Assembly (NCBI GenBank): GCA_963662545.2
Contig: CAXXLL010000002.1
Coordinates: forward strand, 736,001 to 800,000
DNA length: 64,000 nt
Reading direction: 5' to 3'
Source of the DNA: Gammaproteobacteria bacterium
GTDB taxonomy: Bacteria > Pseudomonadota > Gammaproteobacteria > Ga0077536
Below, piece after piece: positions 55-32,589 of this stretch. A model generated the notes under the pieces. The model was not told the DNA's origin, made no database searches, and worked only from the letters and a program-made list of their open reading frames with translations. Position 1 is the stretch's first letter, and each line of letters opens with the position of its first letter. The position numbers were made by a program, and so were the translations under genes.

Positions 55-136
55 GACCGCTTCGGGTCGGTAGCCGCCTGATCGCGGCAGTGCAGCACTA
101 GTAAGGATTACGTCTGCAGTACCTTCAATAGCGGTC
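55..136. repeat. Hairpin repeat family A, copy 1
   Basis: gaccgcttcgggtcggtagccgcctgatcgcggcagtgcagcac...gtctgcag...agcggtc; related blocks at 1107, 3891, 5219, 8196, 9455 and 12863. Confidence 0.75.
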
Positions 137-226
137 GCCGAGTTGAAGCAAAAAGCAAGACCTTGACCCGGCAGCCCCTAAGGGGCAAAGCGCGGGCACG
201 CTGGTCTTTATCTATTGCTTAAATAT

Positions 227-964
227 CTAATGTGGGACATGAACTCCTGCAGTGGCAGATGATGCAAAGGATGCCACCATCGCAGCCCACATCTCTGTGC
301 TTACAAACAAACTACCAAACGTGCCGCCCACAAAAAAACAGACAAAACCTAACGTTATGCCCAGTGACAGTCGTTTGAGTTGTCTAAAATCCCGGTAGAT
401 CATGAAGCCTATAAAAACCGCTGCGAAAAACAGGACGATCATTTGTGCGTTTTTCGTTGTAAATGTGGGAAAGCTGGGCTGAACGATATTTCGAATCAAA
501 CGATCAAAGCCAGGCACAGTTAATAGCGCTGCGGCCATAATCATCAAACGCTTATGTACCTCAGGTTTTCGATGAAAATAAACGCCGACGGCAACGCAGC
601 AGGTAAATGCTGAGGTCAGAATAATATTAAATCGCGCACCACCCGTGATATGCCCACCTGTGCCGGTTAGATAGGCTACCGCCACATAGGTGAGAATAAA
701 TACACTGATCGTAATAAATGCCGAAACAATGCCTAACTCTCGATGCAGGACTCGTCTATTTTTCAAGATCAGCCATGCCTGTAAAATGGCCGCGAAATAC
801 CAGAGCGTAAACAGGACGCCATGAAAATTCATCCATACTGGCAGGGGATCATCAAAGAACCGGGGTCTTAGAAAAAAGCTCGGGACGAAGCCGCCAAGAC
901 AAAGAATAGCCATGACAATGAATGAGAAAAAATAGAACCGGTCCTGGGACATCGGCGTAGTCAT
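227..964 (-). CDS. Multi-pass membrane protein, unknown function
   Basis: 245-aa ORF with about 7 hydrophobic segments; HRELG and HKRLM motifs; upstream GGAG RBS. Confidence 0.8.
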   Translation of the reverse strand: MTTPMSQDRFYFFSFIVMAILCLGGFVPSFFLRPRFFDDPLPVWMNFHGVLFTLWYFAAILQAWLILKNRRVLHRELGIVSAFITISVFILTYVAVAYLTGTGGHITGGARFNIILTSAFTCCVAVGVYFHRKPEVHKRLMIMAAALLTVPGFDRLIRNIVQPSFPTFTTKNAQMIVLFFAAVFIGFMIYRDFRQLKRLSLGITLGFVCFFVGGTFGSLFVSTEMWAAMVASFASSATAGVHVPH

Positions 965-1106
965 AAAATTTTCTCCACCGAACTAACTCATCAACTAATC
1001 AACCTGTACAAGTAGAGCAGCATTGCGAGTCCCTCTGTTCAATTCGGGTTAATTGTTAAAGTACTCTAACCAGCAACAAATCGATTCGCACGGCTGCAGC
1101 TTCGCT

Positions 1107-1191
1107 GATGTAGCCTTAGGGTCGTGAGCCGCCTGATCGCGGCGGTGCAGCACTGTTGTAGATTACGTCTGGAATAACCTCGGAAGCGGTC
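1107..1191. repeat. Hairpin repeat family A, copy 2
   Basis: gggtcgtgagccgcctgatcgcggcggtgcagcac...gattacgtctggaat...agcggtc, very similar to copy 1. Confidence 0.75.
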
Positions 1192-1332
1192 GTCCATTAG
1201 CGTTTGGCGACGTGAGCGTGACGAGCGGCGGCTCTCGACCAATATCGAACTCGATCATGCTCGCTGCCAATTTTTACTCTGGCCCCATTTATTTATCGAG
1301 TTGAACCGGCTCCGCCTTACACAGCGTCGCTC

Positions 1333-1710
1333 TTACAATGGATCTTTCTGCTTCACAAACGTCTGCTTGCGTACGATTTTATCGCCCTCGAAGTAAAGCA
1401 AATCAAGTCCTTTCAACACCACTGGTGCGCCGTCCTTTTCCATATGCAGATCCCAACCGCTCATGATCTTGCCGGCGTCAGCGTCAATAAAGGTGTCGTC
1501 TTCTATGAATTCCATTTTGCCGAACTTGCCGTCGAATTGGGGAGCAAAGGCCTCGCGAACTGCGTCCTTGCCATCGTTAATCTTGCCATGCAGCTCTTCA
1601 TAAACGGCGTCATTGGAGAAAAATGACATGACGTCATCGAGATCGTTACGATTAAATGCGTCGAGGAATTTCAGTGTGATTGCGTAAAGTTCGCTGTGTC
1701 GTTCTGACAT
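1333..1710 (-). CDS. NTF2/SnoaL-like domain protein
   Basis: FLDAFNRNDLDDVMSFFSNDAVYE and GLDLLYFEGDKIVRK patterns; AGGAGG RBS. Confidence 0.85.
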   Translation of the reverse strand: MSERHSELYAITLKFLDAFNRNDLDDVMSFFSNDAVYEELHGKINDGKDAVREAFAPQFDGKFGKMEFIEDDTFIDADAGKIMSGWDLHMEKDGAPVVLKGLDLLYFEGDKIVRKQTFVKQKDPL

Positions 1711-1830
1711 GGTGATTCCTCCTTTGTGCGTTGAAATGGATTGTACAACCTTCTTCGCGGGCGCTCTGGGAGACTCTCGGATCCCTCACCCAGTAAGTTG
1801 AATAAATTTATATGGGTGGCTGCAAAGGGT

Positions 1831-1990
1831 CTATTGTGTTGAAAAAGTCCGATTCGCCGTCGGTCGCGACGTGCGCAGAAAAACCGACCGCTCAGGATCG
1901 CCTATAAGCGACGATCGGCACTCCGGTAATGGTTTGACGACCCCCAAATATATCGAAATCGTATGCCGTACGACTTTTTCAACAGAATAG
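1831..1990. mobile_element. 160-bp MITE with IS1182/IS5-like ends
   Basis: 19-bp terminal inverted repeats ctattgtgttgaaaaagtc / gactttttcaacagaatag (1 mismatch); no credible coding content. Confidence 0.7.
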
Positions 1991-2046
1991 GCCAGCTGCG
2001 GACGTTCACGCCACCAACACCCTCGGATATGCTGCCCGTTGGAATT

Positions 2047-2175
2047 GCCCCGCCTGGCCGGCGTCACCAACGCACGGTATTTGCTGTTCGGCGCGAAAAC
2101 CCCATGGAAGCGTGTCAGGTCGACCCGCAGTTTCGGCACCAGGGCCGCCAGCCGGGCGATGAAGTCCAGTGGGCT
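2047..2175 (-). pseudogene. IS91/ISCR-family (Y2 HUH) transposase C-terminal fragment
   Basis: Translates PLDFIARLAALVPKLRVDLTRFHGVFAPNSKYRALVTPARRG, a characteristic IS91/ISCR segment; rest of the gene absent. Confidence 0.8.
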
Positions 2176-2187
2176 TTTCTAGTTCGA

Positions 2188-3552
2188 TCAACGCCCGCTT
2201 GTAAGATTCGAAACATCGAAGGTCCGGCGGACCTTCGATGCACTCATCGTCGGATGTGATGTGGGCAGCCCAATTCCCACCGACCCACGGTCGTTCTTGT
2301 GGTCGATAGAAATTGACGCGCGCCGGATCACGACGCTCTTCTCTTCCGCGGCCGACCTGCCCCGCATATCTTGTGGTGCCTTGACGACGGTATATAGCGA
2401 TTTCCACAGATTGCCGCCCTTTTCGAATATCGATGCGAACGTAGCCTCGAAGTTTTCCATATCGATGAACATGATGCGGCTAGCGTAGGGGTGGTCCTCC
2501 CACACCGGGGTCAACTCGACCACATAGCACGGCCGTACCTGCCAGCGGTCGTTCGGGATGCGGCTGCTGGGACCATAAAATCTGGCGCTTTCGTGTTTCG
2601 AATTCGCGACGAATAATATCGACTTTTGCCCGATGTAGGTCCATTTGAAATCGAACACGCGCCCTGAAAAGACGGCGAAGTCGTCGAGCGTAAAATCGGT
2701 GCCCATGAACGAATCCGCGCGTTCCTTTGCGGACAGTCGCCGCACGCGCCGCTGCGTCGGAAGATAGGAATTCACCTGGTCGTCTTCGTTAGCGAAGGCG
2801 CGCTCGACCACGAACTTAGTACCCTTGACATCGAACGGTTCGACGAACTCGAAGAAATCCTTCCATAGTAGCCGCTTAGCGTCATCCAGATTGAACCGGT
2901 ATTGTTGATCCGGAAGCATCGCAATATGGCTGAGATACGCCCGCTGGTAGGACATCATCATGAAGCGATCGACTGTGCCACCGCCTTCGAGCCCTGGGGT
3001 CAGTACGGCACTCTCGCCGCCGGCCGTCGGGCGCACCAAGTTGATCTTAATCCCAGCCGTTTTGTAACCGTAGTACTGCCAGCGCTGGATGTGATTCCAC
3101 GCAACCATCTGGCCTGCATCATCGGGTGAGGCTGCGGCAATCCGGGCGTGCGAGAATGGCAAGCCGGCAGCGTAATTTTCGAGTGCGCCGTCGACCCCTA
3201 GGCTGGCGCGATCGCCTCCGTTTACAGTCGCTTCTTGGTACGTCGCCGGTGCTCCGAAGTGGTAGGGCGCTTCGATTTCAACGGCGACTTCGGGAAACTG
3301 TAGGTCGTCGAAAAAACCAGGGACGACGAAGGGTCTTAGTAGTTCGAGATCCTCGACCCCGACGATCGTTCCCGCAATTGGGCCATCGTGTGCGTAGCGA
3401 TATTCTTCCAACCACGCGAGTACGCCATCTCGGGTTGGTGCGGCCAGGGTCGTTTGCATCATGATCATCGCGATAGCAACTATCAGCAGCCGCGACCATG
3501 AGGCTGCTGATATCAACAGATGATATCGGATGACGTCTTCTTTAAAATGCAA
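2188..3552 (-). CDS. DUF1329-family exported protein
   Basis: Signal peptide; YLPTQRRVRRLS, SFMGTDFTLDD, HPYASR and FDVSNL motifs. Confidence 0.8.
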   Translation of the reverse strand: MHFKEDVIRYHLLISAASWSRLLIVAIAMIMMQTTLAAPTRDGVLAWLEEYRYAHDGPIAGTIVGVEDLELLRPFVVPGFFDDLQFPEVAVEIEAPYHFGAPATYQEATVNGGDRASLGVDGALENYAAGLPFSHARIAAASPDDAGQMVAWNHIQRWQYYGYKTAGIKINLVRPTAGGESAVLTPGLEGGGTVDRFMMMSYQRAYLSHIAMLPDQQYRFNLDDAKRLLWKDFFEFVEPFDVKGTKFVVERAFANEDDQVNSYLPTQRRVRRLSAKERADSFMGTDFTLDDFAVFSGRVFDFKWTYIGQKSILFVANSKHESARFYGPSSRIPNDRWQVRPCYVVELTPVWEDHPYASRIMFIDMENFEATFASIFEKGGNLWKSLYTVVKAPQDMRGRSAAEEKSVVIRRASISIDHKNDRGSVGIGLPTSHPTMSASKVRRTFDVSNLTSGR

Positions 3553-3890
3553 TGAGTTTGCCGGCGCATTGTCTTAGACAAGTGATCGTGTTCGATAACC
3601 GATTTTGACACTACCATAAACCTACGCAGCACCAAAACCATCTATCGGTGACATCCGAGTTTCACCAAGAATAGCAAAAACAAACGCTGTTTATCCCGAT
3701 TTTCAACAATGAATCGAGTCGCTACCCAGTGTAACCGACCGTTCGCTCTACTGAGCTGGATATTTGACGGTCGCCGCTTGTGGAAAGGCCGCAGTAACAC
3801 GCGGGTTATCGTTGCGCCAGGAACCTGTTGCAATCCGGAACGAGACGACTATAGATCGCCCGTTAACGGACGTACACCACCGCGAAAGCC

Positions 3891-3975
3891 AATGAGCACA
3901 AACGGTCGTCAGCGGTCTCCACGTGGCAGTGCAGCACTTTCAAAGATTATGTCTGGAATGCCCTTGAAAGCGGCC
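3891..3975. repeat. Hairpin repeat family A, copy 3
   Basis: ggtcgtcagcggtct...ggcagtgcagcac...gattatgtctggaatg...agcggcc. Confidence 0.7.
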
Positions 3976-4116
3976 ATCCTGCTTCTGTAGACATTATTGC
4001 TTGGGCGACTTTGATCTTGAGCAGGAGCGAACGTTCACTGTCTTAGCCTCAACCGCTATGCTACCGACTCGTTATAGAAGCGAGGTTTGAATCATGAATA
4101 GCAGAGGAACGCACAC

Positions 4117-4674
4117 ATGAACGACAAATTTCTCGGTGATCGCAGAAGAGCATTGGAGGAATCATTCTTCGCCAAGGAAAACGAAAAACTCCGCAAGGCG
4201 CTACAAGAAAAAGAGGAAGCGAAGAACAAGAAGGAGGCCCTTTCGGCCGCGTCTGGCATAACGGATGACACGGTGCTCGAACACCTTGTCGTGCTCAACA
4301 TCGGCAGTGATACATTGGCAGCGCTAGCCCTTGTCCCACTAGTAGAAGTCGCCTGGGCGGACGGCACTATGGACGATAGCGAACGCAGCGCCATTCTGTC
4401 CGCCGCCGAAGATGCAGGCCTCAGCGGTGAAAGCGCGGTCCTGCTGGACGGATGGCTGGCCACACGACCGAGCTATAAAGTGCTTTCAGCTTGGAAAGAC
4501 TATGTCTCGGCGCTTGCGAGTACGATGGATGCGGGGGCCAAGGATCAACTCAAGCAAGAGCTACTAGGTCGCGCGCGCACGGTCGCAGAGTCAGCCGGCG
4601 GGTTTCTCGGTATCGGCAAGATATCGAGCGAAGAGGAAGATAAGCTAGAAGAGTTAGCAGGTGCGTTTTCTTAG
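4117..4674 (+). CDS. TerB-like domain protein
   Basis: RRRALEESFF N-terminus, VPLVEVAWADG...ERSAIL, GGFLGIGKISSEE. Confidence 0.75.
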   Translation: MNDKFLGDRRRALEESFFAKENEKLRKALQEKEEAKNKKEALSAASGITDDTVLEHLVVLNIGSDTLAALALVPLVEVAWADGTMDDSERSAILSAAEDAGLSGESAVLLDGWLATRPSYKVLSAWKDYVSALASTMDAGAKDQLKQELLGRARTVAESAGGFLGIGKISSEEEDKLEELAGAFS

Positions 4675-4778
4675 GCTTAAGGCTCTCTGCTTGTCTAAAC
4701 GCGAGCAGCACTTTTCGCGCGCTCCCTTCGCTGCCGCTCCGGTCGGTTGCCGTAAAGCGCGGCTGAGCTTCATTAGGC
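4675..4778 (+). repeat. Degenerate attC-like site
   Basis: cccttcgctgccgctccggtcggttgccgtaaagcgcggctgagcttcATTAGGC, 12 nt before the next ATG; homologous to 8868 and 32484. Confidence 0.6.
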
Positions 4779-4790
4779 GGCAACGAATTC

Positions 4791-5176
4791 ATGACTGAAT
4801 ACGAATACTTAGATTTAATCGTCACCTCTCGCGATTCGGTCGGCTACCACGCGATGAATTACATAGGTGTAATGTTTGCGTATGTTGTTGCCGCTTATTT
4901 AGTTGGCGTGAACTTTCACGGTTCCAAGCGTTCGCGATCACAATTTTATACGCGATTTTCTCGCCATATCCGTGCATTTCTTCGCACGAATCGTTGAAAA
5001 TAAATCAAACAGCGATCATTGAATATTTCGCGAAATACAAGCCCGAGGAATCCGTCTCCATAGTAGTCTTATACGGTACAGAATTGCTGGTCGTGTTATT
5101 CGTTGGGACGTGGATACTTAGCGTAATCTTTATGATCCAGACTGGAGCGTTTAGCGATAGTAATGATGATGCCTAA
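4791..5176 (+). pseudogene. Frameshifted small membrane protein (cassette-type gene)
   Basis: Two overlapping hydrophobic ORFs (4791-4997, 4994-5176); the stop codon lies within the GCCTAAC inverse core. Confidence 0.55.
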
Positions 5177-5302
5177 CACTGCCCCGGCATTTGACTGTTC
5201 TCTTCCTTCGCTGCCGCTGATGTCCGCAATGATCGTCAGCGGCCTCCTCGCCGCAGTGCAGCACTGATTAGCGTTTTGTCTGCAATTCTCTCCATAGCGG
5301 TC
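5171..5302 (+). repeat. Left half of attC (5171-5218) fused to repeat family A copy 4 (5219-5302)
   Basis: GCCTAAC...ccggcatttgac...ccttcgctgccgct then gatgtccgcaatgatcgtcagcggcct...gcagtgcagcac...gtctgcaat...agcggtc. Confidence 0.7.
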
Positions 5303-5430
5303 GTTAGCGGTCGTTCTGTTGCTTCGAGCTTCGTGCCCCAAGCCCACTTCGGCTTACGGCCGAGGGCGTGTGAAAAGAACAGTATTGTTACGCAAATCGG
5401 GGAGTGATCGAAAACGCGCTCAAATTTTTG

Positions 5431-5546
5431 TGTCACTAAGTGACATTAGTAGTAGCGGCACAGTCGTTCGAGTTTCTGTTTTTCCCAGGGCTCAATGCAA
5501 CCCCGGCATGCAATGAGAATCCTGATGCTTTGGCATCGCGCTCGCA
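5431..5546 (+). promoter_or_regulatory. Candidate sigma54 promoter with upstream palindromic activator site
   Basis: Palindrome TGTCACT-A-AGTGACA (5431-5445); TGGCAT-CGCGC-TCGC with GG-N10-GC spacing (5531-5545). Confidence 0.35.
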
Positions 5547-5771
5547 GATTTTTTGGTCGCCATGTGCGGCACCGGGCACAATAAGCGTTGCAGCACATAG
5601 TTTAGTGCGAAAAATTCAAACGAGGAGCGATTATGCCGACACCGACAAAAAGCGGCGTGGCTATTCGGATGGCTGATCACCCGACACGAGAGCCTGCATG
5701 CTGAACGGCAGACATCGTCAGCTGATTCACACCGCCTCGGTTCACACCTGAAGATTAAGGAGGACAAAAAA

Positions 5772-6533
5772 GTGGCAACCAGGAAAAAGCCTACCATCAG
5801 AACGAGTGCCGACCCCAGGCAAGCCTACAGCATGCCCTACATGTCGCCCCTGTATTTCGCGCCGCCCATGGAATACCGCGGCAACTGGTCGCAACACGTG
5901 ACGTTCAGGAGCGACCCCAAGGTCATTTCCAGATGGATCCCGAAGCAGCTGGTTCCCGATCCCGACGGTTTGATGTTTATGTTGACCAGCTATTTTTTTG
6001 CCACGGGGTTCGGTCATTATCGAGAAGCGACGCTGTGTGCACACGCCAGGTTCAAAGAAAAACCCGTGAACTACACGTTGTTTCTCATACTGGACAACGA
6101 TATGGCGATTTGCGGCGGACGGGAAATCTGGGGTTGGCCCAAAAAGATGGGGACCATCGAGGTCGATGAGAACGACGCGGTGGTGCAGGCGCGGGTCGGG
6201 CGCGGCGGTGTTGAATTAGTGCGCGCAAACGTCGTCTTGAACGAACTTGTCGATGCGAGTGCGCTGGGCGGTACCACGAAGTATGTGAACTGGAAATTCA
6301 TCCCATCGGTCAAGAATGGTGCGCCGCCGGACGTCAATCAGCTGACCTTGACCGAGCTCACCAATTTTGTACCCGACAAGGTCTATCGCGGGCCGGCCAC
6401 GATCGAGTTCGGTCGCTCTCCATGCGATCATTATGCGGAGATACCCGTCGTCGAGGTGATCGAAGGGTTTTATTACAGCTCAGACTTCACCCTGGAAGAT
6501 GGTGAAGTCATCCACGACTATTTGAAGTCATGA
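5772..6533 (+). CDS. Acetoacetate decarboxylase family protein
   Basis: GGREIWGWPKK Schiff-base lysine motif, GFGHYRE, C-terminal GEVIHDYL; AGGAGG RBS. Confidence 0.85.
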   Translation: MATRKKPTIRTSADPRQAYSMPYMSPLYFAPPMEYRGNWSQHVTFRSDPKVISRWIPKQLVPDPDGLMFMLTSYFFATGFGHYREATLCAHARFKEKPVNYTLFLILDNDMAICGGREIWGWPKKMGTIEVDENDAVVQARVGRGGVELVRANVVLNELVDASALGGTTKYVNWKFIPSVKNGAPPDVNQLTLTELTNFVPDKVYRGPATIEFGRSPCDHYAEIPVVEVIEGFYYSSDFTLEDGEVIHDYLKS

Positions 6534-6622
6534 ATGGGCCGGCCACTTTCCGCATTTCACTCCGCGTAGACGTGAATTCCGCTCGCCTCGTAGGGCGGAA
6601 TTGCTGGAGTATAAGAAAAACA

Positions 6623-8007
6623 GGGTCTACGCGGAAACGTGTGGGTTGATATTGGCATTTCTGGGTAGTGGCGGAAGAAATGCCGCAATGATTTTCAGTT
6701 TGAGGAATTCCTCATCACGATAGCCATAGGCGCGTCGTTGCAGGACCCGGATTTTGTTGTTGACCCCTTCGACCAATCCAAGACTGACTTTATTCTTAGC
6801 ATCACAATAGGAAGCAATGCCATCCCAATGGGATTCAATCAGCTCAGCAAACTTGCGATACGGCGCCAATCGCTGCCATTTCAGACTGTCCTTCCAGCGC
6901 TCGAAAAAGGCACGCGCGCCGCGCTCGGTACGGTAGTCCCAGAGTTGGCCGAAGGTTTCCTTGAGGACGTAGGCGGTGTTCAGACGCCGGTTGGCCTGGA
7001 GCAGTTTTTTCAGGGCTCGTCTGCCATCCAGATTCAGGTTCTCGCGTCGCGAGAGCAAGGTATATCGCTGGCCTTTGATGTAACTCCTGTCCTTGCCGCG
7101 GAGACGTTTGTATTCACGGCGCCGGACTTCATCGAGAGCCTTTGAGAGGTGGCGCATGATATGGAACTTGTCATAGATGATCCGCGCCTGCGGTGCGTTG
7201 TTCATGACCGAGTTACGGAACGGCTTCCACATGTCCATCGCCGCCAGTTCGATGCGAGCGCTCTTGTTCTCGCCCAATGCCTGGAAAAACAGGTCGATGT
7301 CAGCCTCTTTGCGACCTTCACCACCGACCCAGATAGGACGCCCCCGATCCAGGTCACTGACGATGACCCGGTAGTTATGTCCTTTGCGGATGGAGATCTC
7401 ATCAATACCGATGGCCCGGGGTGCTGGCATGCCCGCCAGCTCAACCTGCTTTTGCATGTACAGCTTATCGAGGTCTTTCACCGTGCTGTGGTGCAGGCGT
7501 TCCCTCTCGGCGACAGCCTGGTTCGGCATGTCCCGGCACAGCTTGCCCACCTGCATGGCAAAGCGCTGCGTATAGCGAGGGTTCTTTGCCAGCCAGTCAA
7601 GATGTTCTACCTGCACGCCGCCGCACCTCCGGCAACTGACACGCCAGCGTTCGAACTCCAGGTAGATTCGCCATCCGGCAACTGACAGGTCTCGTACTCG
7701 CAGCACCTTCTTGTCGTAACGCCCGCGGCACCGGTGAGCACAGTGAGAACAGATCGCTGTTTTTTTCGCCTCTTGAGTTGGATCACACGGGCATACCGAT
7801 CACCAAACATGCCCACCAATTTCGATGCGGCGGTAAAACCAGGGAACGCAAACAGCGCTCGGATCGACTTGGGATTCTTCATGGCCTTAGCCTACCCACA
7901 AAATGAAACCACTTTCACCCCATACGAAATCTCTGAATGTCTACATGATTTCAATGGTTTACACTTGGTCTAATTCAGAATTTACCCACATGAATCCGCG
8001 TAGACCC
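6623..8007 (-). mobile_element. ISL3-family IS, copy 1 (1385 bp)
   Basis: Inverted repeats gggtctacgcgga / tccgcgtagaccc; 8-bp target duplication GAAAAACA (6615-6622, 8008-8015). Confidence 0.95.
6627..7882 (-). CDS. ISL3 transposase, two ORFs joined by a probable -1 frameshift
   Basis: IGIDE, MDMW, DKFH and EGVNNKIR motifs; A7 run at 7760-7766 links orfA to the CSHC zinc-finger frame. Confidence 0.9.
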
Positions 8008-8195
8008 GAAAAACAAGATGTCGGCTCGCGTCGGCTGTGCATCGCGCCGGTCGAGATGCTCGAGAATGCGTTGGATGACGGCGGGATCTTTGATGCGGGC
8101 AATGACTGCGGAGCACTGTACCTGTGTGTGTGGCCTCTAGAACTATTTTCACGGTCGGGTTGGGCCGGAAGCAAGCGTTCTAAAACTGGAGCTCC

Positions 8196-8262
8196 GAGGT
8201 CCGCGTGGGGTCGTCAGCGGTCTGATCGCGGCAGTGCAGCACTGCTAAGCGCTATGTCTGCA
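8196..8262. repeat. Hairpin repeat family A, copy 5 (3' truncated)
   Basis: gtccgcgtggggtcgtcagcggtctgatcgcggcagtgcagcac...tatgtctgca. Confidence 0.7.
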
Positions 8263-8348
8263 CCGAAATTATGCGTCACAATGACACGATTAATCGCGTC
8301 AATTTGACGACCATTTATCGTTAGGCGGAAGGGGATCACTCCGCGCTA

Positions 8349-8843
8349 TTGCTAGAAGAATGGGCGTTAATCGCAGAAATCGTCGCCGCTTTGGGGGTGA
8401 TTGCTTAGCTCATATATCCTGCGGTTCAAATGCGACTCACGCGCGTGGCTTCCGAAGCGCAGCTTTCGTATTTGTCTGTGGAAGTCTATTAACGTTGGCG
8501 TACGGCCCTGATGGATAATTCAGATCTCCCCCGCGCTATTGCGAAGGGCAATCGGGGAGACGCTCTATGCGACGATGAAGAAATTCAGATTCGCGCACTG
8601 ATGGATGAGCTGTTTATAGTTTCAGCTATTTCGCATAAGAGCACGATCCATTCGGACTCGCTCCACGATCGCTCGTTAGACATTGATTATGTAGTTGGTA
8701 TTCTTGAAAAGAATTCCGGATTAATATCGCAGTGGGCGAGATTTCGAAATTTTGCGGAGCTAATATCGCCAGAATATGGGCAATCCATAGATAGACGCTT
8801 AGATCAGATTGGAAACAATCGAGGGGACGATGGTGCCGCTTGA
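8349..8843 (+). pseudogene. Degraded cassette-type gene
   Basis: LEEWALIAEIVAALGVIA membrane N-terminus interrupted by stops; C-terminal ORF 8511-8843; preceded by GTTAGGC (8320) and followed by attC. Confidence 0.5.
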
Positions 8844-8867
8844 GTTCATATTTGAAGTGAAACATCC

Positions 8868-8966
8868 ACTTAACAGAATGTTGCAGCCGACCCCTGACCG
8901 CGAGTTCCCTTCGCTGCCGCTCCGATCGGTTGCATTAATGCGCGGCTGAGCTTAGCTTTGTGTGGC
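8868..8966 (+). repeat. attC-like site
   Basis: ACTTAAC...tgcagccgac...cccttcgctgccgctccgatcggttgc...gcgcggctgagctt; imperfect palindrome with degenerate right core. Confidence 0.65.
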
Positions 8967-9054
8967 ATAGTAAATCTGTGACGTCGCGTCCGCAATCGAA
9001 AGTAGTAATTCACAGAATGATAACGTCGCGCACTCCATTATTGACGAGGAGTAA

Positions 9055-9336
9055 TTGTTGATGACTAGTCCATTGACGGCAACCGTTTTGGGGTTAGCTC
9101 TAGCCATGACATCTGGTGTGAATGCATACGATCCGATGCCTGATCCGAGGATGTCGCCAAACCCGCCGGTAACCGGATCGACACAAAGCCGAAGCGAAAA
9201 TCCGGATGCTGACAGCGGCGAACACGATTCGCGTTTAAATGATCGTACCCGTCGTCATGGAGAGCCTGAATTCGGGTCAAGCGCCAGCCGTAGAAATGGG
9301 TACAATTATGGAAGCGGTGCCCGCAGCGGCAACTAG
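9055..9336 (+). CDS. Small secreted low-complexity protein
   Basis: Signal-peptide-like N-terminus; GAGGAG RBS. Confidence 0.5.
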   Translation: MLMTSPLTATVLGLALAMTSGVNAYDPMPDPRMSPNPPVTGSTQSRSENPDADSGEHDSRLNDRTRRHGEPEFGSSASRRNGYNYGSGARSGN

Positions 9337-9400
9337 CAACGAATTGTGTGACTCTCGCTGAAATAAACACGCATATATTCAAATCTGAAGTGCAACATCC

Positions 9401-9552
9401 GCCTGGCAATATATCGTAGCCGGCACTTGATCGCGCCCTTCCTTCGGTGCCACTGATGACTGCTGTGGGTCATCCGCGGAAGTCAAAGGCGAACGTTCCT
9501 CGCATCACAGGCGATCCGTCTGGAGCGACCGCTTTGGCTCTCATAGCAGTCT
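9401..9552 (+). repeat. Left half of attC (9401-9454) fused to a family A-type hairpin unit
   Basis: ccggcacttgatcgcgcccttccttcggtgccact then gatgactgctgtgggtc...; same junction position as 5218/5219. Confidence 0.6.
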
Positions 9553-9622
9553 TTCGCCGAGTCGGAAAAGTTGGAAGCGACCAGGGCTCTCCCCGAACCG
9601 CTTTCACAGACGCGACAGCGTT

Positions 9623-9933
9623 TTAGACTTCTGTCTGCTCAGCCATCTCAAGCGCGTCATCGACCTCGACCCGGATCTCCCTCTGCTCCGCAAGACGCCA
9701 GAATACTTTTCCCAATTCCCGGCGTATTTGACCAAATATCGCTTTCTTCCGGTACTTCGGAATGAACACGACGTGATACTTACACTTCCATCGGCTGTGC
9801 CTTAAACTCCCATCTAGTCTCATGATTGACTCCCTTTCGTGATGCTCTGGCGGCTCACGTCAGGGAGTCCGTCATGGGACTCCCGGAATTGTCAAACTTT
9901 TGCGGTCTCCCCAGCAGAGCTGGGGGGTTTACC
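9623..9933 (-). pseudogene. tnpA: IS200/IS605 tnpA (Y1 HUH) 5' remnant with end hairpin
   Basis: SLRHSRWKCKYHVVFIPKYRKKAIFG; truncated before HUH; ccccagcagagctgggg hairpin upstream. Confidence 0.85.
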
Positions 9934-10093
9934 AATCTGGGCTAAGGCGAAACAAATTATCCGACCATCACTTCCTTCGGAAAACGTGCACCGTAGGACA
10001 CCAAAGTATTTGGTAATGATCGGTTACTTATGACCCCCTTAGTAACTTGTCAGTACCTTACCGACCGCGACACCCAATCCAAGGGATCTTCAC

Positions 10094-12668
10094 GTGCCAT
10101 TGAGAGACTGTGCCCGCTACTGGTTCCTGCCTCGCATCCTCGCGCTACTTTTTGTATCGGCGGCGATCTCTGAGGCAGTGTCGGCGCAAACCGATGAATT
10201 AGATCAAGTCCGCAATCTGCTACTCGTTTCCGAAGCCACCTCGGTTGCCCGGGACCTGAGCGTTTCCGACGACATGTTCGATCAAATAGCGGCTGTCGCG
10301 GTGCTGGCCGACGTCGGTGATAAGGCGGCGATCGAGTTTCTCGCCGCTGGGCTTGAGTCTACGGATTTCCTCTACCAACGTGCTGTGGTCGACACACTAT
10401 TGAGTCTGCGCAGCGCAGACGGTGTCGAAGTCTTACGTCGCTATATGGAGGCCGCTGAGGACCTGGGCTTTTTGCGCTATCTGATGGAATCGCTTGCCTC
10501 CCATCCGCTCCCGGTAATGATAAGTTTTCTGGGTCTACGCGGAAACGTGTGGGTTGATATTGGCATTTCTGGGTAGTGGCGGAAGAAATGCCGCAATGAT
10601 TTTCAGTTTGAGGAATTCCTCATCACGATAGCCATAGGCGCGTCGTTGCAGGACCCGGATTTTGTTGTTGACCCCTTCGACCAATCCAAGACTGACTTTA
10701 TTCTTAGCATCACAATAGGAAGCAATGCCATCCCAATGGGATTCAATCAGCTCAGCAAACTTGCGATACGGCGCCAATCGCTGCCATTTCAGACTGTCCT
10801 TCCAGCGCTCGAAAAAGGCACGCGCGCCGCGCTCGGTACGGTAGTCCCAGAGTTGGCCGAAGGTTTCCTTGAGGACGTAGGCGGTGTTCAGACGCCGGTT
10901 GGCCTGGAGCAGTTTTTTCAGGGCTCGTCTGCCATCCAGATTCAGGTTCTCGCGTCGCGAGAGCAAGGTATATCGCTGGCCTTTGATGTAACTCCTGTCC
11001 TTGCCGCGGAGACGTTTGTATTCACGGCGCCGGACTTCATCGAGAGCCTTTGAGAGGTGGCGCATGATATGGAACTTGTCATAGATGATCCGCGCCTGCG
11101 GTGCGTTGTTCATGACCGAGTTACGGAACGGCTTCCACATGTCCATCGCCGCCAGTTCGATGCGAGCGCTCTTGTTCTCGCCCAATGCCTGGAAAAACAG
11201 GTCGATGTCAGCCTCTTTGCGACCTTCACCACCGACCCAGATAGGACGCCCCCGATCCAGGTCACTGACGATGACCCGGTAGTTATGTCCTTTGCGGATG
11301 GAGATCTCATCAATACCGATGGCCCGGGGTGCTGGCATGCCCGCCAGCTCAACCTGCTTTTGCATGTACAGCTTATCGAGGTCTTTCACCGTGCTGTGGT
11401 GCAGGCGTTCCCTCTCGGCGACAGCCTGGTTCGGCATGTCCCGGCACAGCTTGCCCACCTGCATGGCAAAGCGCTGCGTATAGCGAGGGTTCTTTGCCAG
11501 CCAGTCAAGATGTTCTACCTGCACGCCGCCGCACCTCCGGCAACTGACACGCCAGCGTTCGAACTCCAGGTAGATTCGCCATCCGGCAACTGACAGGTCT
11601 CGTACTCGCAGCACCTTCTTGTCGTAACGCCCGCGGCACCGGTGAGCACAGTGAGAACAGATCGCTGTTTTTTTCGCCTCTTGAGTTGGATCACACGGGC
11701 ATACCGATCACCAAACATGCCCACCAATTTCGATGCGGCGGTAAAACCAGGGAACGCAAACAGCGCTCGGATCGACTTGGGATTCTTCATGGCCTTAGCC
11801 TACCCACAAAATGAAACCACTTTCACCCCATACGAAATCTCTGAATGTCTACATGATTTCAATGGTTTACACTTGGTCTAATTCAGAATTTACCCACATG
11901 AATCCGCGTAGACCCAGTTTTCTTATAGAGGCGCTCGACCATTATGACCCAGTGGTTAAAAAGTTCGCCCTGCAATCGCTCTCTCAGTTACATTTTGAGA
12001 ACCACGACTCACGAATTCACCTACTGGCGAGCGATGCCGGAGAAATCGTGCAGGTGCGGGCATACGCCTGGAATGTATTACTGGATTCGCCACATCGGCG
12101 AGAGTCGATCGAACGCCTGCTGGAAATGTCTCGGCTTGGAAGTCCCGAAGCAAAGGAAGTCGTGGCAGTGGCGCTCGGCCGTGTTGACACACCACGAACT
12201 CGCGAAGCATTGGTTGAGTTGATGTCGAGTAACGACAACCGCGTAGCGCTTGCTGCGCTTACAAGTTCTGCCGGGTTGCGGGATGAGGCAGCAGCGCGTG
12301 AGCTCGAATGGACCATCGTTTACGGTGATGGACTTCATCGTGCTGCCGCGGCTGGCGGACTAAAGCGTATCGACCCGGCGGTCGCCTCGCGTGTTACCGA
12401 GAACCTAATGTCCTGTTACCTGCTTGGTCCGTTCACGGGGATGCGCCTTGTCGAAGCGTGGGCCATGATCGATGCCGACCCAAGCACCGTATATGGTTGG
12501 GGTTTGTCCCACGAAGACGAAGGAGTTCGCATGCAGAGCATTTGGTTAATAGGTCAACGTCGCGATGTAGAATACTTAGAACGAGTTGCTGCCTTCCTCC
12601 GCGATCCGAGTCCTGCCATCCGAGGCCTCGCGGCGTGGGCGGTGTTGCGCCTGGCTAGAGGGCCATAG
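10094..12668 (+). pseudogene. Secreted HEAT-repeat protein interrupted by ISL3
   Basis: Removing the IS and one target copy joins 10094-10530 to 11924-12668 in frame (MISF-LIEALD), 393 aa with HEAT-like repeats (VALGR, LRDPSPAIRGLAAWA). Confidence 0.85.
10531..11915 (-). mobile_element. ISL3-family IS, copy 2 (1385 bp)
   Basis: Same ends and same ORF translations as copy 1; 8-bp target duplication AGTTTTCT. Confidence 0.95.
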
Positions 12669-12764
12669 CTTATCTAGCCTGTTACCAAAACCCCTGTGAC
12701 GCTCCCGAATGGACCGATTGCTGGCGCTGGCGGCCTAACGCCCACACAAACCGCCATTGGCGTA

Positions 12765-12839
12765 AAAAGGGGCAAGCACTTATTTTTGTCCGTTCCTATA
12801 TCTTCAAAAGGCAAAGAGGAAATAAGTGCGTCGCCTTTT
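12765..12839. repeat. REP-like inverted pair
   Basis: aaaaggggcaagcacttattt ... aaataagtgcgtcgcctttt. Confidence 0.5.
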
Positions 12840-12862
12840 GGGTGCTGCCGCGAATACGTAAA

Positions 12863-12947
12863 GGGCCGCTATATTGGGTCCATAGCCGCCTCATCGCTAC
12901 AGTGCAGCACCGTTCCAAATCACGTCTGCAATGCGCTCGTAAGCGGT
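12863..12947. repeat. Hairpin repeat family A, copy 7
   Basis: gggtccatagccgcctcatcgctacagtgcagcac...cacgtctgcaatg...aagcggt. Confidence 0.7.
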
Positions 12948-13053
12948 TGTCGAATTGCTTCAAGCGTTAAGTCGAGAGGGTATGACGGTTTTCGGCCACA
13001 AGCAGTCCTTCGAAAATCGCCTGCCCAGCATCGGTACACGGTGAGAAAAAGGG

Positions 13054-13114
13054 AAAGGTGCCAGGTTTATTTAGAGCGGTTCGCTAACTACCAAAAATAA
13101 ACCTGATGCCCTTT
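13054..13114. repeat. REP-like inverted pair
   Basis: aaaggtgccaggtttattt ... aaataaacctgatgcccttt. Confidence 0.5.
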
Positions 13115-13137
13115 TCTCAAAACGAGGAAGTCATAAA

Positions 13138-13601: not shown

Positions 13602-13675
13602 GGCTAACAAACCAATGAGCCCGACGCTTGACCTGTCGGTGGCGAATTAGATGTTCAAGGGGTCTGACCCCTTGA
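13602..13675 (+). repeat. Shortened attC-like site followed by a GGGGTC-T-GACCCC palindrome
   Basis: GGCTAAC...ccgacgcttgacc...ATTAGAT; tcaaggggtc-t-gaccccttga at 13655-13675. Confidence 0.5.
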
Positions 13676-13719
13676 TTAGCAGCTCATCGTGCCGCGATGA
13701 ATTCTCCTGTATTGACGTC

Positions 13720-14565: not shown

Positions 14566-14629
14566 CAACCAGCACGGGGAACTCGTGATGGTGTTTACAC
14601 CCTTGCGTATGATCAAAGCCAGCGCTTAA

Positions 14630-14791
14630 GGGACCTCTGAATAAGTCATGGTGCGTCTGAATGGTTCATGCGATGGTCCAGATCAAGACACGAGTCGCCG
14701 GCCATAGTGGGGACTATGGGTAAGGTTCGTAACGTAAGGCTCCGCGATTTCATGGGCAAGGCAGATGGGCCATGACTTTTTCAGAGGTTCT
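14630..14791. mobile_element. 162-bp MITE (IS5-like ends), copy 1
   Basis: gggacctctgaataagtcatgg ... ccatgactttttcagaggttct flanked by TTAA on both sides; homologous to 54335 and 56607. Confidence 0.85.
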
Positions 14792-14938
14792 TTAAAGCAT
14801 CACCTGCTTGAGCGAGACTGGTCGTTGAATTTGCATCGGCGCCACCAAATCCCATTGGATAAATTCGCCAACGCCGTGCGCATCGCCCAGATGATCGGGA
14901 ATTTCCGTTTCTACGTTATTTCCCCCAATTTCGTCTGA

Positions 14939-15693: not shown

Positions 15694-16923
15694 TTACTCG
15701 AATACCGGAATCAGCGATCCAGCGACTTCGACAATTTCGCGACTGCCGTCGTCACCGTAGAAGAACAGCAACCCGGCGATGACGCTATCGGGATCGTTAA
15801 TCATGCGGGTCAGACGCTGGGTCTCCCATAAAGCATCTTCGGCAAACACCTCGACGCTTTTTGTTTCGCCGGGCGCAATGCCATCATTCACCACCCGCAG
15901 TCCCGCACTCGCGATCAAGTCATGTTCGTCTAACGGTGTGACCGTTCGCACAGCCGGATTGATAAATCGAATGTTTGCCGTCATGAACTCGCCGACGTAA
16001 AGGGTCGCCGGCCCGTTATTCATCACTAAAAGCTCCATTCTGAAGCTGCGGCCGGGAATACGGTAAGTGGCTTTCTCGACCTGCACGTTGACCTTAGATA
16101 CGGGATAAGGTTTGTCGGCCGGTATACTGATCTTAGACGTTCGCAGAGGAATGGTGACGGGAGCCGCGCGCTCGCCCCACATAAAACCCGCGACGATAAT
16201 CAACAACGTGACGGTAATAAACCCGACGGCAACCTTTACATCCCCGTCGGTAATCAGGTCGTCCCCGTCTCCGCCTTTATTCTCGGCTTCCGTTACCGCG
16301 CGAAGACGCGGAACGAGCAACGGACGCTGTCGCAGCCAATAAAAAAGCCACGCCCCGCCGATGACTATCCAAATCAAATGCCAAGCAGCAATCGTGCCCA
16401 GATTGAATCTTTCCAAATCGACTTCGCGCCCGAACATCGTCTCCACCTTGTTCTCGAAATCGTCAAACGAACCGCTTACCTCGACCCAGCGTCCAGGTCC
16501 GGCCAGGGTACCGGCATCCTTGACATTGAGCACCGGATGTACGTGGAAACGTCCCGGCTTGCGGGCCTTTAGTTCGATTGCGAAGCTATAATCCTTGCCC
16601 TGTTCGAGCGAGGTGGACTGCACGGCGCTGATGCCGTCGATATTGGACGATACCCGTACGAAATTCGGTCCCCCGGTCGACACGTTCAAGAATACCCGGT
16701 CCTCAACCGACGGGATCTGCTCCGGCCAATAGCTCGATACGCGTAGGCGTCCCTTAATCTTTACGACTTCTCCAATCGCAACCGTGGGCGGCCCAATTTT
16801 AACGTCATACCAGTTGATGGTGCGCATGCGGGTGGTGGCCTGCATCGCGCGCTCACCGTGCGCGAGCCCCTCCAGCGGCACAAAAACCAGCAAGAACAAC
16901 AGTGCTGCTGCTCGGATCAACAT
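15694..16923 (-). CDS. pmoB: Copper membrane monooxygenase subunit B (PmoB/AmoB family)
   Basis: Signal peptide then HGERAMQATTRMRTINWYD; GRFHVHP (CuB His ligands); ATYRIPGRS; WETQRL...DPDS..AGLLFF. Confidence 0.95.
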   Translation of the reverse strand: MLIRAAALLFLLVFVPLEGLAHGERAMQATTRMRTINWYDVKIGPPTVAIGEVVKIKGRLRVSSYWPEQIPSVEDRVFLNVSTGGPNFVRVSSNIDGISAVQSTSLEQGKDYSFAIELKARKPGRFHVHPVLNVKDAGTLAGPGRWVEVSGSFDDFENKVETMFGREVDLERFNLGTIAAWHLIWIVIGGAWLFYWLRQRPLLVPRLRAVTEAENKGGDGDDLITDGDVKVAVGFITVTLLIIVAGFMWGERAAPVTIPLRTSKISIPADKPYPVSKVNVQVEKATYRIPGRSFRMELLVMNNGPATLYVGEFMTANIRFINPAVRTVTPLDEHDLIASAGLRVVNDGIAPGETKSVEVFAEDALWETQRLTRMINDPDSVIAGLLFFYGDDGSREIVEVAGSLIPVFE

Positions 16924-16955
16924 ATGCCAACCAAGTTAAGACAGTTATTACGGAT

Positions 16956-17690
16956 TCAGGCTTTCGTTATCCAGGTCTGCCTGTTAAGGATCGATCCGAA
17001 CGCCCACGACACATAAAAGACCAAGGTGCAGACGAAACCCGCGAAGACGGCCGTGAGCGGCGTGACCGCATCACCGAAAGTCCGCAATACTGATCGCTCC
17101 ACCAGGCGAATATATTCCGGTAAGCCGGTACGAATATATTCGTAACCGAGAAGGTCTGCCGTCGTCAGCATTTCCCCGTTGTAGTTGATGGGTTCATGGA
17201 AGGCGGCCAGCAACGGCCAGTTAACCGGGTAGACCAACAGCCCCCACAGAAACGCACCCGAGAGGCCGGTCAGGAAGACACTGCGCGTAATAAGCAGCGA
17301 GCAATCGATGAGGATGGCGAGCGGAATGAAGATTGACGGCCAGACAAAGCTCATCGGGTAGCCGGCGAACAGGTGGAAATTCAGGTAGACGCTGAACCAA
17401 CGCATGATCGTGTAGAGCAGCACAACGCCCGTGCAGCCGATGGGCAGCCTGAATCGGGACCAAAATGCAGCGGCGAGCCCGGCGGGAAAGACGAGCAGGG
17501 CCGCTACCGGTAACAGGGGCCAGAAGCGCCGGTCTTTCCAGTCGACCCAGAACTCCCAATCGCCGATCGTCACCGACATGACGAAAACCGTCGCACCCGC
17601 GACGGCAAACAGAATCACGGCGAACAACGCCAGATCGACGTTGCTCTCGAGGTATTCGGTGATTCTGGAACGCTCAGCTACCGTAGCCAC
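16956..17690 (-). CDS. pmoA: Copper membrane monooxygenase subunit A (PmoA/AmoA family)
   Basis: GDWEFWVDWKDRRFWP, FRLPIG, YPVNWP, ADLLGYEYIRTGLPEYIRLVER..LRTFG. Confidence 0.95.
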   Translation of the reverse strand: MATVAERSRITEYLESNVDLALFAVILFAVAGATVFVMSVTIGDWEFWVDWKDRRFWPLLPVAALLVFPAGLAAAFWSRFRLPIGCTGVVLLYTIMRWFSVYLNFHLFAGYPMSFVWPSIFIPLAILIDCSLLITRSVFLTGLSGAFLWGLLVYPVNWPLLAAFHEPINYNGEMLTTADLLGYEYIRTGLPEYIRLVERSVLRTFGDAVTPLTAVFAGFVCTLVFYVSWAFGSILNRQTWITKA

Positions 17691-17751
17691 AAAAGCCTTT
17701 TACCTCTCGATTCGCGCGTCTGGCGCCGGTCCCGGATACGGCCGACAGAAA

Positions 17752-25022: not shown

Positions 25023-25124
25023 GCGCGCCCGACGATTCACCACCCACAGCCGTTCGGATAAACGATTCCGGGACCACCGCCTTGCTTATTGCGGGCTACC
25101 TGAAATTAGAAATCTGTTCTAGCA

Positions 25125-25154
25125 GTTGCTCTAGGATTTAAATCCTAGAGCAAC
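25125..25154. repeat. Perfect 30-bp palindrome
   Basis: gttgctctaggattt followed by aaatcctagagcaac. Confidence 0.85.
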
Positions 25155-25260
25155 CTCCTGCTTTCTAGGCGGGGTTTTCTTTTTGCGCGTGAGTTATGCT
25201 CTGCTGCGAGAGCCCCGCTTCAGGGCGGTTCTGTAGCAACCTCCGGCGAATTGCGGACTA
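25146..25260. repeat. Repeat family C, copy 1
   Basis: gcaacctcctgc..ctaggcgggg...ccccgcttcagggcgg...gcaacctccggcgaattgc. Confidence 0.55.
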
Positions 25261-25562
25261 CAGTAGTTCTTTGCCAGTGTTGATTGGCTTTGGCTATCTT
25301 GTCTGACGATTGTTCCGGATTCTCACGCAAAACGGGAGCACGGAGTAAAGATTATCTGCACATAGATAACAAAGGGGGAAGGGCAAGCCGGGAATCTTTA
25401 TTTGTTCGCGATGTCTATATAGTTAGTCGATAACTTTCTGGTCTCGAGAGCGAAACTTAGAGGGCAAGAAGTTTGCGCAACACACGACACTGAGTTTGAA
25501 AACAACGATATTTGGCGAAATGCGCGCCGGTCGAAATTTCGGTGGTTCAGGAGGTCGATTCA

Positions 25563-28613: not shown

Positions 28614-28686
28614 CCGTTGAATCAGAAGAAGCCCAGCAAGCCATACGATAGACAATTAGCAACGTTCAATCTGTCTTCGCAATCAC

Positions 28687-32582: not shown

Positions 32583-32589
32583 TCTCGGG

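Follow-up and report, generated by a model that had tools for sequence, protein, structure and literature searches.

What kind of element separates the genes at one end of a 64-kb stretch of gammaproteobacterial DNA, and what would have placed it there? The stretch analyzed, hereafter the window, comprises 64,000 nucleotides from a Gammaproteobacteria bacterium of the Ga0077536 lineage (assembly GCA_963662545.2, contig CAXXLL010000002.1, positions 736,001 to 800,000), and its first 13 kb carry a repeat between successive genes. An earlier note had described about seven same-orientation, intergenic copies of a two-unit element of roughly 85 bp, and had proposed that these were single-stranded DNA hairpin sites used by an HUH enzyme for gene capture outside any integron. 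The reading that we favor, tentatively, is that positions 1 to 13.7 kb are an integron-type cassette array that has decayed, shows no integrase, and carries giant attC-like sites, in the manner of the clusters of attC sites lacking integron integrases (CALIN). The repeat would then be the conserved central module of unusually long attC-like hairpin sites, about 220 to 270 nt overall, and these long sites would mark cassette boundaries as would the shorter, more ordinary attC-like sites that alternate with them.

A repeat search of the window returned the family as six direct copies of 78 nt, all on the + strand (60-137, 1115-1192, 3899-3976, 5226-5303, 8204-8281, and 12872-12949) and 64 to 79% identical to the reference copy. 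A 45-position IUPAC pattern drawn from the conserved columns (AGCSGNCT-N10-GTGCAGCAC-N13-GTCTG) matched the window six times, where 0.00 matches were expected and none of 100 shuffled sequences had any. A nucleotide profile built from eight copies, five from the window and three from another genome, retrieved the same six places with E values from 1e-12 to 4e-25, the next best match in the window being at E=0.87. By pattern and profile alike, six copies lie within 1-13 kb and none in the other 51 kb, intergenic regions included. The absence of any other significant profile match in the 64 kb means that the statement of the earlier note that the remaining 50 kb hold no copy stands. Its count of seven copies stands for six of them, whereas the seventh, at 9455, is too degenerate to score; this copy gave no + strand profile match, and its sole match is on the minus strand at E=1.6.

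The copies, all on the + strand, are called c1 to c7 in what follows. The left side of c1 (54-145, profile E=1.3e-24) is cut by the start of the window, and its core runs from GGGTCG at 64 to AGCGGTC at 130-136. In c2 (1112-1245, E=4e-25), the 3′ inverted arm CGGCGGCTCTCGACC lies about 107 nt past GGGTCG, and an outer palindrome spans 1037-1306 (GTTCAAT...GTTGAAC). The outer arms of c3 (3894-3986, E=2.6e-22) are unconvincing, with a flank pairing rank of 6 of 9. The site of c4 (5171-5393, E=2.8e-20) is a 223-nt palindrome with the core (5224-5307) at its apex; the core contains an internal tandem duplication of 10 nt, and the palindrome extends from GCCTAAC, overlapping the stop codon of the upstream open reading frame (ORF), to GTTACGC. 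Copy c5 (8202-8262) is truncated past GTCTGCA and is followed by a GTTAGGC heptamer at 8320; the profile retrieves it (E=1.4e-12) even though it is absent from the set used to build the profile. The degenerate c6 (9413-9590) consists of the left half of a second, shorter repeat family (9413-9454, E=0.001) followed by a diverged core, whose landmarks were recognized by eye only (GGGTCA at 9467, GTCTGG about 50 nt on, and CGACCA about 110 nt on). Finally, c7 (12867-12959, E=5e-23) has GCCTAAC at 12733 and GTTAAGT at 12966. By eye, a hairpin of about 75 nt (12770-12845) seems to have been inserted in the left part of the c7 site, and this A/T-rich hairpin and another at 13035-13115 flank c7 with similar stems (AAGCACTTATTT / AAATAAGTGC and GGTTTATTT / AAATAAACC).

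In all eight full copies, including a strongly diverged one from another genome, GGGTCG and AGCGGTC lie exactly 66 nt apart. Within and around this interval, the conserved blocks GGGTCG, AGCSGNC, GCAGTGCAGCAC, GTCTGCA, and AGCGGTC are separated by stretches that vary freely, one of them a 13-nt linker. About 105-120 nt to the right of GGGTCG, most copies have GGCGGCTnnCGACC, the inverted complement of the left block GGGTCGnnAGCCGCC. These inverted arms are about 15 nt each, and in c2 their pairing is worth -19.7 kcal/mol. The hairpin potential ascribed to the repeat is supported. With the arms included, the conserved core is about 125 nt (125-150 nt as an element), larger than the 85 bp described; c5 lacks the second unit, and the two units are not clear independent hairpins. 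It had likewise been argued that the repeat lacks terminal inverted repeats with a target duplication. A miniature inverted-repeat transposable element (MITE) of a DDE transposon would have terminal inverted repeats plus a flanking target-site duplication. In the repeat, the inverted arms do exist once the element is extended rightward, and no consistent flank duplication is seen by eye.

All plus-strand frames of the repeat contain stops. A coding remnant on the minus strand was considered and rejected: peptides with shared residues can be read there, but stops occur within 2-4 codons upstream in three copies, the variation, by eye, does not cluster at third positions, and no NCBIfam family matches any of five such peptides. 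A likeness of these peptides to the "LAALVP" of ISCR transposases, noted by eye, is unsupported, as the repeat profile has no match at 2038-2178.

The strict pattern was also scanned over 185,579 species representatives, a set that does not include the source genome of the window. Three loci were returned (L001, L002, and L003), of which L002, inside an ABC-ATPase gene, was discarded as a chance match; the two true loci are both in one gammaproteobacterial metagenome-assembled genome (MAG; CBDCJB01). L001 has a diverged second copy 0.9 kb downstream of the first, and together the two bracket one small gene. The bracketed insert has a GC content of 0.44-0.52 and is flanked by genes for a molybdopterin-type oxidoreductase and an oxidase, whose GC content is 0.60-0.68. 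The small genes that follow the first of these copies (L001a) and L003 are homologous (E=2e-7). A probable pseudogene of the same kind follows c5 in the window: 8346-8489 (+), a decaying small membrane-protein gene with in-frame stops, aligns with the L003 homologue as two short, collinear, N-terminal pieces astride a stop (E=8e-4 and 0.003). The ORF at 8511-8843 was rejected as the equivalent gene of c5 because it does not align with the small protein of the MAG. Searches of plasmid DNA with one short and one long site gave no meaningful match, the best covering 22% of the query at E=0.02.

The repeat is accompanied by a second family of intergenic repeats on the same strand, here called s-type, which bears directly on the exclusion of attC in the earlier note. 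Profile searches of the window found four full copies, namely 4695-4780, 8875-8963, 32488-32583, and 33641-33725, with E values of 1e-21 to 1e-23. These short sites are 86-99 nt overall, which is within the attC size range, and they are laid out as R′′-spacer-L′′...L′-spacer-R′, as in attC. Three sites of this type, all on the + strand, fall within the array. The first, s1 (4695-4780, E=2.3e-21), has the degenerate end heptamers GTCTAAA and ATTAGGC. The second, s2 (8868-8963, E=1.6e-23), reads ACTTAAC-5 nt-GTTGCAGC-cgac ... GCTGAGC, with a degenerate 3′ heptamer. The third, s6 (13602-13700), reads GGCTAAC-5 nt-AATGAGCC-cgac ... GCTCATC; its 3′ heptamer is lost, and it matches the profile only weakly (E=4.3). 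The sites at 8868 and 13602 each have a canonical attC left half, composed of a ..TAAC heptamer, 5 nt, an 8-nt box, and cgac, with a 7-nt box on the other arm. We compared this layout with the IntegronFinder seed alignment (PMC4889954, supplementary file 6), using part 1 of 2 of that file. At the corresponding positions of this part, three of the four boxes (GTTGCAGC, GCTGAGC, and GCTCATC) occur identically, and the fourth, AATGAGCC, differs by one base from the seed-alignment box AATGGAGC. Farther along, the site at 32484-32582 ends in GCTGAGC-5 nt-GTTAGAT, and at 5171, 30663, and 32484, the + strand ORF upstream ends in a stop codon that either overlaps the ..TAAC heptamer or lies just before it. 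In an attC, the inner boxes L′′ (8 nt, with one extra base) and L′ (7 nt) pair and are set 5-6 nt from the heptamers; in our own scorer, the best box pairing was 7 of 7 at 8868, but with 7-nt spacers, and 6 of 7 at 13602. The left half of the s-type sequence also precedes the repeat in c6, as noted above, and perhaps in c4 (5185-5219), where the match is not significant (E=1.3). By eye, GGTCGGTAGCCG of the core resembles GGTCGGTTGCCG of the short sites.

The two families alternate on one strand in the order c1, c2, c3, s1, c4, c5, s2, c6, c7, s6, giving 10 same-strand sites in 13.7 kb, seven with the repeat and three short. An array that holds a family with attC layout, alternating in the same orientation with the repeat, does not sustain the earlier exclusion of attC. 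What does hold is that the repeats are clustered and punctuate single genes: apart from two ISL3 copies and other debris, the intervals contain roughly one gene each. All neighboring sites are spaced by less than 4 kb, which is the clustering rule of IntegronFinder (Cury et al. 2016, PMC4889954). The array has a GC content of 0.49-0.55, below most of the window (0.54-0.61), and includes decaying genes; one of them, an apparent cassette gene at 4791-5176 (+), is split into ORFs of 68 and 60 aa. The locus resembles a CALIN (PMC4889954) in that same-strand imperfect palindromes less than 4 kb apart each follow a single gene, mostly small and with a function that is unknown or accessory, ..TAAC heptamers occur at stop codons, the short family has 8-nt and 7-nt boxes at the canonical 5-nt spacing, insertion sequences (IS) lie inside the array, and GC content is lower than in the surroundings. 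The sites have the spacing and shared strand of a CALIN, no intI was found among the ORFs scanned or by tblastn, and membership in that class hinges on whether they are attC.

Three or four copies of the repeat are found at the apex of longer palindromes of 220-270 nt that end in ..AAC and GTT... The segment 5168-5398 (231 nt), which contains c4, folds as a single hairpin that closes GCCTAAC on GTTACGC (z -3.20), with 2 of 200 shuffled sequences folding as well. When the 70-nt flanks of nine copies were ranked by how well each pairs with its own opposite flank, c4 and the second MAG copy ranked 1, c2 ranked 2, and L003 ranked 3. The repeat had been said to have no GTTRRRY-type core; an attC has complementary terminal heptamers, RYYYAAC (5′) and GTTRRRY (3′), with conserved AAC and GTT triplets. 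Heptamers of the ..AAC and GTT.. kinds do occur, further out, in several copies, and the candidate end heptamers give lengths of 223-270 nt for the sites that contain the repeat. Both AAC and GTT triplets are present at 5171/5387, 12733/12966, 32484/32576, and L001 2795/3050, whereas one triplet is lost at 4693/4772, 8868/8957, 13602/13694, 33629/33719, and 1037/1300. A similar test with 160-nt flanks (p=0.33) was discarded as uninformative because long arms give large spurious duplexes. Also rejected as a general rule was a 3′ heptamer in the 13-nt variable linker after GTGCAGCAC, for which a comparison of own with other pairing to upstream sequence gave p=0.55 (p=0.13 with a longer arm).

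Several results weigh against this reading, beginning with the pairing of the repeat itself. In an alignment of eight copies, the arm helix and a second helix (CGTCTGC / GCGGTCG) have 88.3% of cells paired, compared with 24-54% when the partners are slid; column shuffles, however, reach 87.6%, and 50 of 500 shuffles match the covariation score. The covariation term of RNAalifold is likewise unfavorable (+0.8). Since pairing is no better than in column shuffles and the covariation term is positive, there is no evidence of compensatory change, and the repeat is best described as a set of conserved inverted repeats. Nor does the linker co-vary with upstream sequence (p=0.55), so that the covariation that had been expected across aligned copies was found neither by RNAalifold, nor in the comparison with shuffles, nor in the linker. 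Seven of eight shorter folds are unremarkable, and no better than shuffles are the folds of 1060-1312 around c2 (253 nt, z +0.77) and of L001:2795-3050. In the flank ranking, the other five copies fall at ranks 5 to 9, and the overall permutation p is 0.11. Furthermore, conservation stops at the inverted arms of the core, as it would for a discrete element, beyond which the flanks differ between copies, and the ..AAC and GTT.. ends lie outside the conserved part. Heptamer pairs of this quality are equally frequent in shuffled sequence. The variable terminal structure of attC is reported as 20-100 nt (PMC4889954), a range that the long sites, at 223-270 nt, exceed, and these sites do not keep the 5-nt spacing between heptamer and box.

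A crude descriptor that combines heptamers, spacers, and boxes gave a score of 13 for the attC of aadA1 from plasmid R100, used as a control, and scores of 3-10 for sites in the window (3 for s6); a score of 10 was seen 16 times per strand, versus 20.7 in shuffles. As a detector, this descriptor was rejected, as its counts were at or below those of shuffles at every threshold. No site combines two intact triplets with canonical box geometry. The short-site profile misses the aadA1 attC, which is expected because attC sites are too poorly conserved for sequence alignment (PMC4889954), and the repeat profile misses the short sites. Cross-detection between the two families yielded no match or, for one copy, E=5.7, and the right flanks of the copies, with the core removed in thought, do not match the short-site profile. 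Any homology between the two families is therefore suggested by reading of the sequences rather than by statistics. Three genes at the left end of the array (227-964, 1333-1710, and 2188-3552) point the other way. No integrase domain was detected by Pfam among the 68 ORFs scanned (in 1-15 kb, 23 of the 42 with 80 aa or more; in 15-64 kb, 45 of the 91 with 120 aa or more), and tblastn with IntI1 of plasmid R100 against the whole window, L001, and L003 gave a best E value of 2.9, with no integrase remnant. No intI with attI beside the array was found within the 64 kb that this search covers, and the array extends past the left end of the window, where an intI could still lie. Compared with the sites of a CALIN, those described here differ in containing a core that is fixed in length and bounded by inverted arms of its own, in reaching an overall length of 220-270 nt, in mostly lacking an intact AAC or GTT, in being accompanied by three inverted genes, and in having neither intI nor an intI pseudogene in 64 kb.

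Could the repeat instead be a repetitive extragenic palindromic (REP) element, a bacterial interspersed mosaic element (BIME), or a regulatory RNA such as a terminator, an mRNA stabilizer, or a small RNA, dense at this locus and with no role in gene movement? It is intergenic, on one strand, and conserved in length, and no recombinase match was found in the window. Some positions in the stems are also G-T or G-U, which RNA tolerates better than DNA: one pair is U-G in seven of eight copies, and another is U-A in four and U-G in four. REPs with their REP-associated tyrosine transposases (RAYT) and palindrome-associated transposable elements (PATEs) are derivatives of IS200/IS605, whose transposases are of the Y1 HUH class, and are short, strand-specific, hairpin-bearing, and intergenic, without terminal repeats plus a duplication. 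REPs occur in tens to hundreds of copies genome-wide and flank a RAYT gene. The repeat shares with such elements its small size, strand specificity, and intergenic position, and an IS200 remnant is nearby. It is, however, confined to one array in the window, with six copies in 13 kb and none in 51 kb, rather than spread evenly as ordinary REPs are, and only two strict matches occur, in one other species representative. The only Y1 gene is a 66-aa IS200 stub, and a REP or BIME with its RAYT was found neither in these 64 kb nor through the two strict matches in the other genome. An identity with a known RNA family, which the earlier note had also allowed for, finds no support: Rfam 15 had no match in the window at gathering scores, and a lax search of 1-13.8 kb gave four matches at E values of 2.2-7.9, none of them on a repeat copy. 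The location of copies both up- and downstream of genes in both orientations, the lack of covariation, and the low-GC, one-gene insert between the two MAG copies, which points to mobility, also argue against this explanation, and we consider it improbable.

A different possibility, which we regard as unlikely but less so than a REP or an RNA, is that the core of about 125-150 nt is a small non-autonomous mobile element that has lodged in the single-stranded apical loops of attC and other intergenic hairpins and was moved in trans by a transposase encoded elsewhere, either a single-strand-specific HUH enzyme of the IS200/IS605 type or an IS1111-type DEDD enzyme. On this view, too, the array would derive from an integron. 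Non-autonomous elements of the IS200/IS605 type have subterminal hairpins at both ends and insert on one strand 3′ of a fixed word of 4-5 nt. The sequence RATG, a possible target word, occurs left of the core in 6 of 10 copies, and an IS200 remnant lies beside the 9455 copy. The core has sharp conservation borders at its inverted arms and differing flanks, it is at the apex of a longer palindrome wherever outer arms are visible, and the core-less short sites of the same array resemble "empty" sites. Its single orientation and the lack of any visible target duplication are traits of both the IS1111 family and IS200/IS605. According to PMC11187229, IS1111 members have 11-13-bp subterminal inverted repeats and make no duplication, and some target attC sites. 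Like the IS1111-attC group and the group IIC-attC introns, then, the core would be inserted in one orientation into attC hairpins without target duplication. Those elements, however, are autonomous, 1.2-2 kb long, and encode a transposase or a reverse transcriptase, whereas the core is a noncoding apical module of 125-150 nt. Also, the IS1111-attC elements ISKpn4 and ISPst6 are reported to target one end of the site, not the loop (PMC11187229), while the copies here are at the apex and diverged, with no autonomous partner having the same ends in the window. Identity among the copies is only 64-79%, and conserved blocks alternate with linkers that vary freely but without indels (66-nt spacing in 8 of 8), a pattern that looks like long-standing constraint rather than recent transposition. 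The failure of the right flanks, minus the core, to match the short-site profile and the lack of an established target duplication or consistent target word further count against a mobile core.

Whether the HUH enzyme originally proposed could have used the repeat depends on the transposase debris within the array. The IS91/ISCR fragment reported there is real. This first remnant of an ISCR (IS91-family, HUH Y2) transposase, at 2038-2178 (-), comprises about 47 residues of the C-terminal third and decays downstream; it matches Pfam Y2_Tnp (E=0.001) and the NCBIfam model for ISCR clade Ia (E=1.8e-14, model positions 375-419 of 509). Over 46 residues it is 84.8% identical in amino acid sequence to an ISCR2-type gene found in at least 5000 plasmid records, and this relative is the ISCR2-type transposase located beside sul2 on resistance plasmids of Enterobacterales. 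An element that is widespread in the clinic thus has an environmental relative here. The second ISCR remnant, at 8023-8106 (-), is the extreme C-terminus; it is 5′-truncated beside c5, whose left edge it abuts, and is cut on its 3′ side by the first of two ISL3 copies. It is 52% identical over 29 aa to the C-terminus of the ISCR2-type protein (E=7e-6 in a single comparison) and has neither an NCBIfam match nor a plasmid tblastn match. The third HUH remnant, from the IS200/IS605 (Y1) family, is at 9623-9823 (-), about 35 nt from c6, and retains only the N-terminal 66 aa (E=3.3e-8 by Pfam, E=2.8e-11 by NCBIfam). Two ISL3-family elements are also present. Copy 1 (6623-8007, -; DDE_Tnp_ISL3 E=7e-72 by Pfam) is flanked by the 8-bp target duplication GAAAAACA; copy 2 (10531-11915, -), with the target duplication AGTTTTCT, splits a HEAT-repeat gene (10094-10576 and 11811-12668). 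They share only GGGTC with the arms of the repeat. Elsewhere in the window, a MITE-like element, about 170 bp long and bearing CCTCTGAATAAGTCATGG / CCATGACTTATTCAGAGG as terminal inverted repeats, occurs at 14626-14797, 54331-54502, and 56604-56774. A LysR-family regulator gene is interrupted by the copy at 54331, which leaves the ORFs 53926-54345 and 54470-55012, and by eye the end of the element resembles the ISL3 end region (TCTCTGAAT).

The presence of HUH-transposase debris among the repeats is therefore confirmed, in the form of two ISCR remnants and one IS200 remnant within 13 kb. Together with the hairpin potential of the repeat and the absence from it of an intact canonical integron core, this debris lends some appeal to non-integron gene capture at HUH hairpin sites, by a Y2 enzyme of the IS91/ISCR type or a Y1 enzyme of the RAYT/IS200 type. 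The link to an HUH enzyme is not supported. The fragments, of about 47, 29, and 66 residues, are all dead, no intact HUH or RAYT gene is present among the 68 ORFs scanned, and the repeat is not regularly placed at ISCR ends. HUH remnants are near only two of the seven copies (c5 and c6), an ISCR remnant abuts just one, and none of five minus-strand peptides of the repeat matches a family. ISCR capture, which the two remnants in the array might bring to mind, needs one oriIS end and read-through, and no repeated site between successive genes; both remnants here are 5′-truncated C-terminal stubs. The alternating attC-like sites already explain the one-gene spacing, and IS are present in 12% of CALIN and 23% of complete integrons (PMC4889954). 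We read the HUH remnants as debris rather than as the engine because all are dead, five of the seven copies have none nearby, and IS are common in cassette arrays. Capture by an HUH enzyme consequently appears very improbable to us.

We return to the integron-derived array as the reading we prefer. By analogy with known cassettes, one strand of each site would fold into a hairpin, at whose ..AAC/GTT.. base an integron integrase would have cut, inserting and excising units made of a gene and its site. This enzyme, a tyrosine recombinase, would be encoded at another locus or would have been lost since. The core, conserved over about 125 nt, would have occupied a tolerated terminal loop and been copied along with the site. 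What we observe is a repeat of defined architecture that alternates with attC-like sites and, in some copies, is nested in longer palindromes; recognition by an integron integrase and past mobility are inferred. The array is probably frozen, because most sites lack one or both core triplets and because ISL3, ISCR, and IS200 debris and pseudogenes have accumulated. It is doubtful, to about the degree that a mobile core is, that we are dealing with an undescribed passenger or extension of integron sites, namely a loop-colonizing non-autonomous element or a "giant" attC lineage of more than 200 nt. A giant lineage would escape the standard detection model and its size limit. For a loop colonizer, a single-strand-specific transposase of the HUH type could be the mover, which would in part rescue the earlier HUH idea.

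The window has other features besides these sites. A third family of + strand intergenic repeats (25095-25275, 26720-26930, and 28655-28835), about 150-190 nt long with 71% mean column identity, has an internal palindrome and a CCTCCGGCGAAT motif in each copy. With one gene per repeat, the copies stand between genes for a PEP-CTERM protein and a patatin and small ORFs, in a stretch of low GC content next to the s-type sites at 30.6-33.7 kb. The region of the PEP-CTERM protein gene includes a 197-nt tandem duplication, perfect to 98%, at 25937-26330. The patatin-like phospholipase encoded at 27213-28148 (+) matches the NCBIfam model for the cGAMP-activated phospholipase of cyclic oligonucleotide-based antiphage signaling systems (CBASS) at E=1.2e-57, with 195.6 bits versus a cut-off of 200, as well as the phospholipase effectors of PADLOC (E=3.5e-67), and no cyclase is found among the neighbors scanned. 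Judged by these matches, the gene may be an orphan defense effector within a cassette-like region. Between the array and this region, 15694-18534 (-) holds a copper membrane monooxygenase operon in the order C-A-B (AmoC/PmoC, AMO/PmoA, and Monooxygenase_B; E values of 1e-71 to 1e-126), which adjoins dehydrogenase, amidohydrolase, and ring-hydroxylating dioxygenase genes. From this operon and its neighbors, the organism looks like a hydrocarbon- or ammonia-oxidizing gammaproteobacterium.

If the long sites are not true attC and the core is not a loop-seeking element, then the locus is an ordinary decayed cassette graveyard with no wider consequence. A loop-seeking core would be a third parasite specific to attC, after the IS1111-attC elements and the group IIC-attC introns, and a natural probe of the single-strandedness of attC in vivo. 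If the long sites function as attC, or did so until recently, then cassette arrays can hold sites well beyond the usual size range of integron finders, and such arrays would be under-counted in environmental Gammaproteobacteria.

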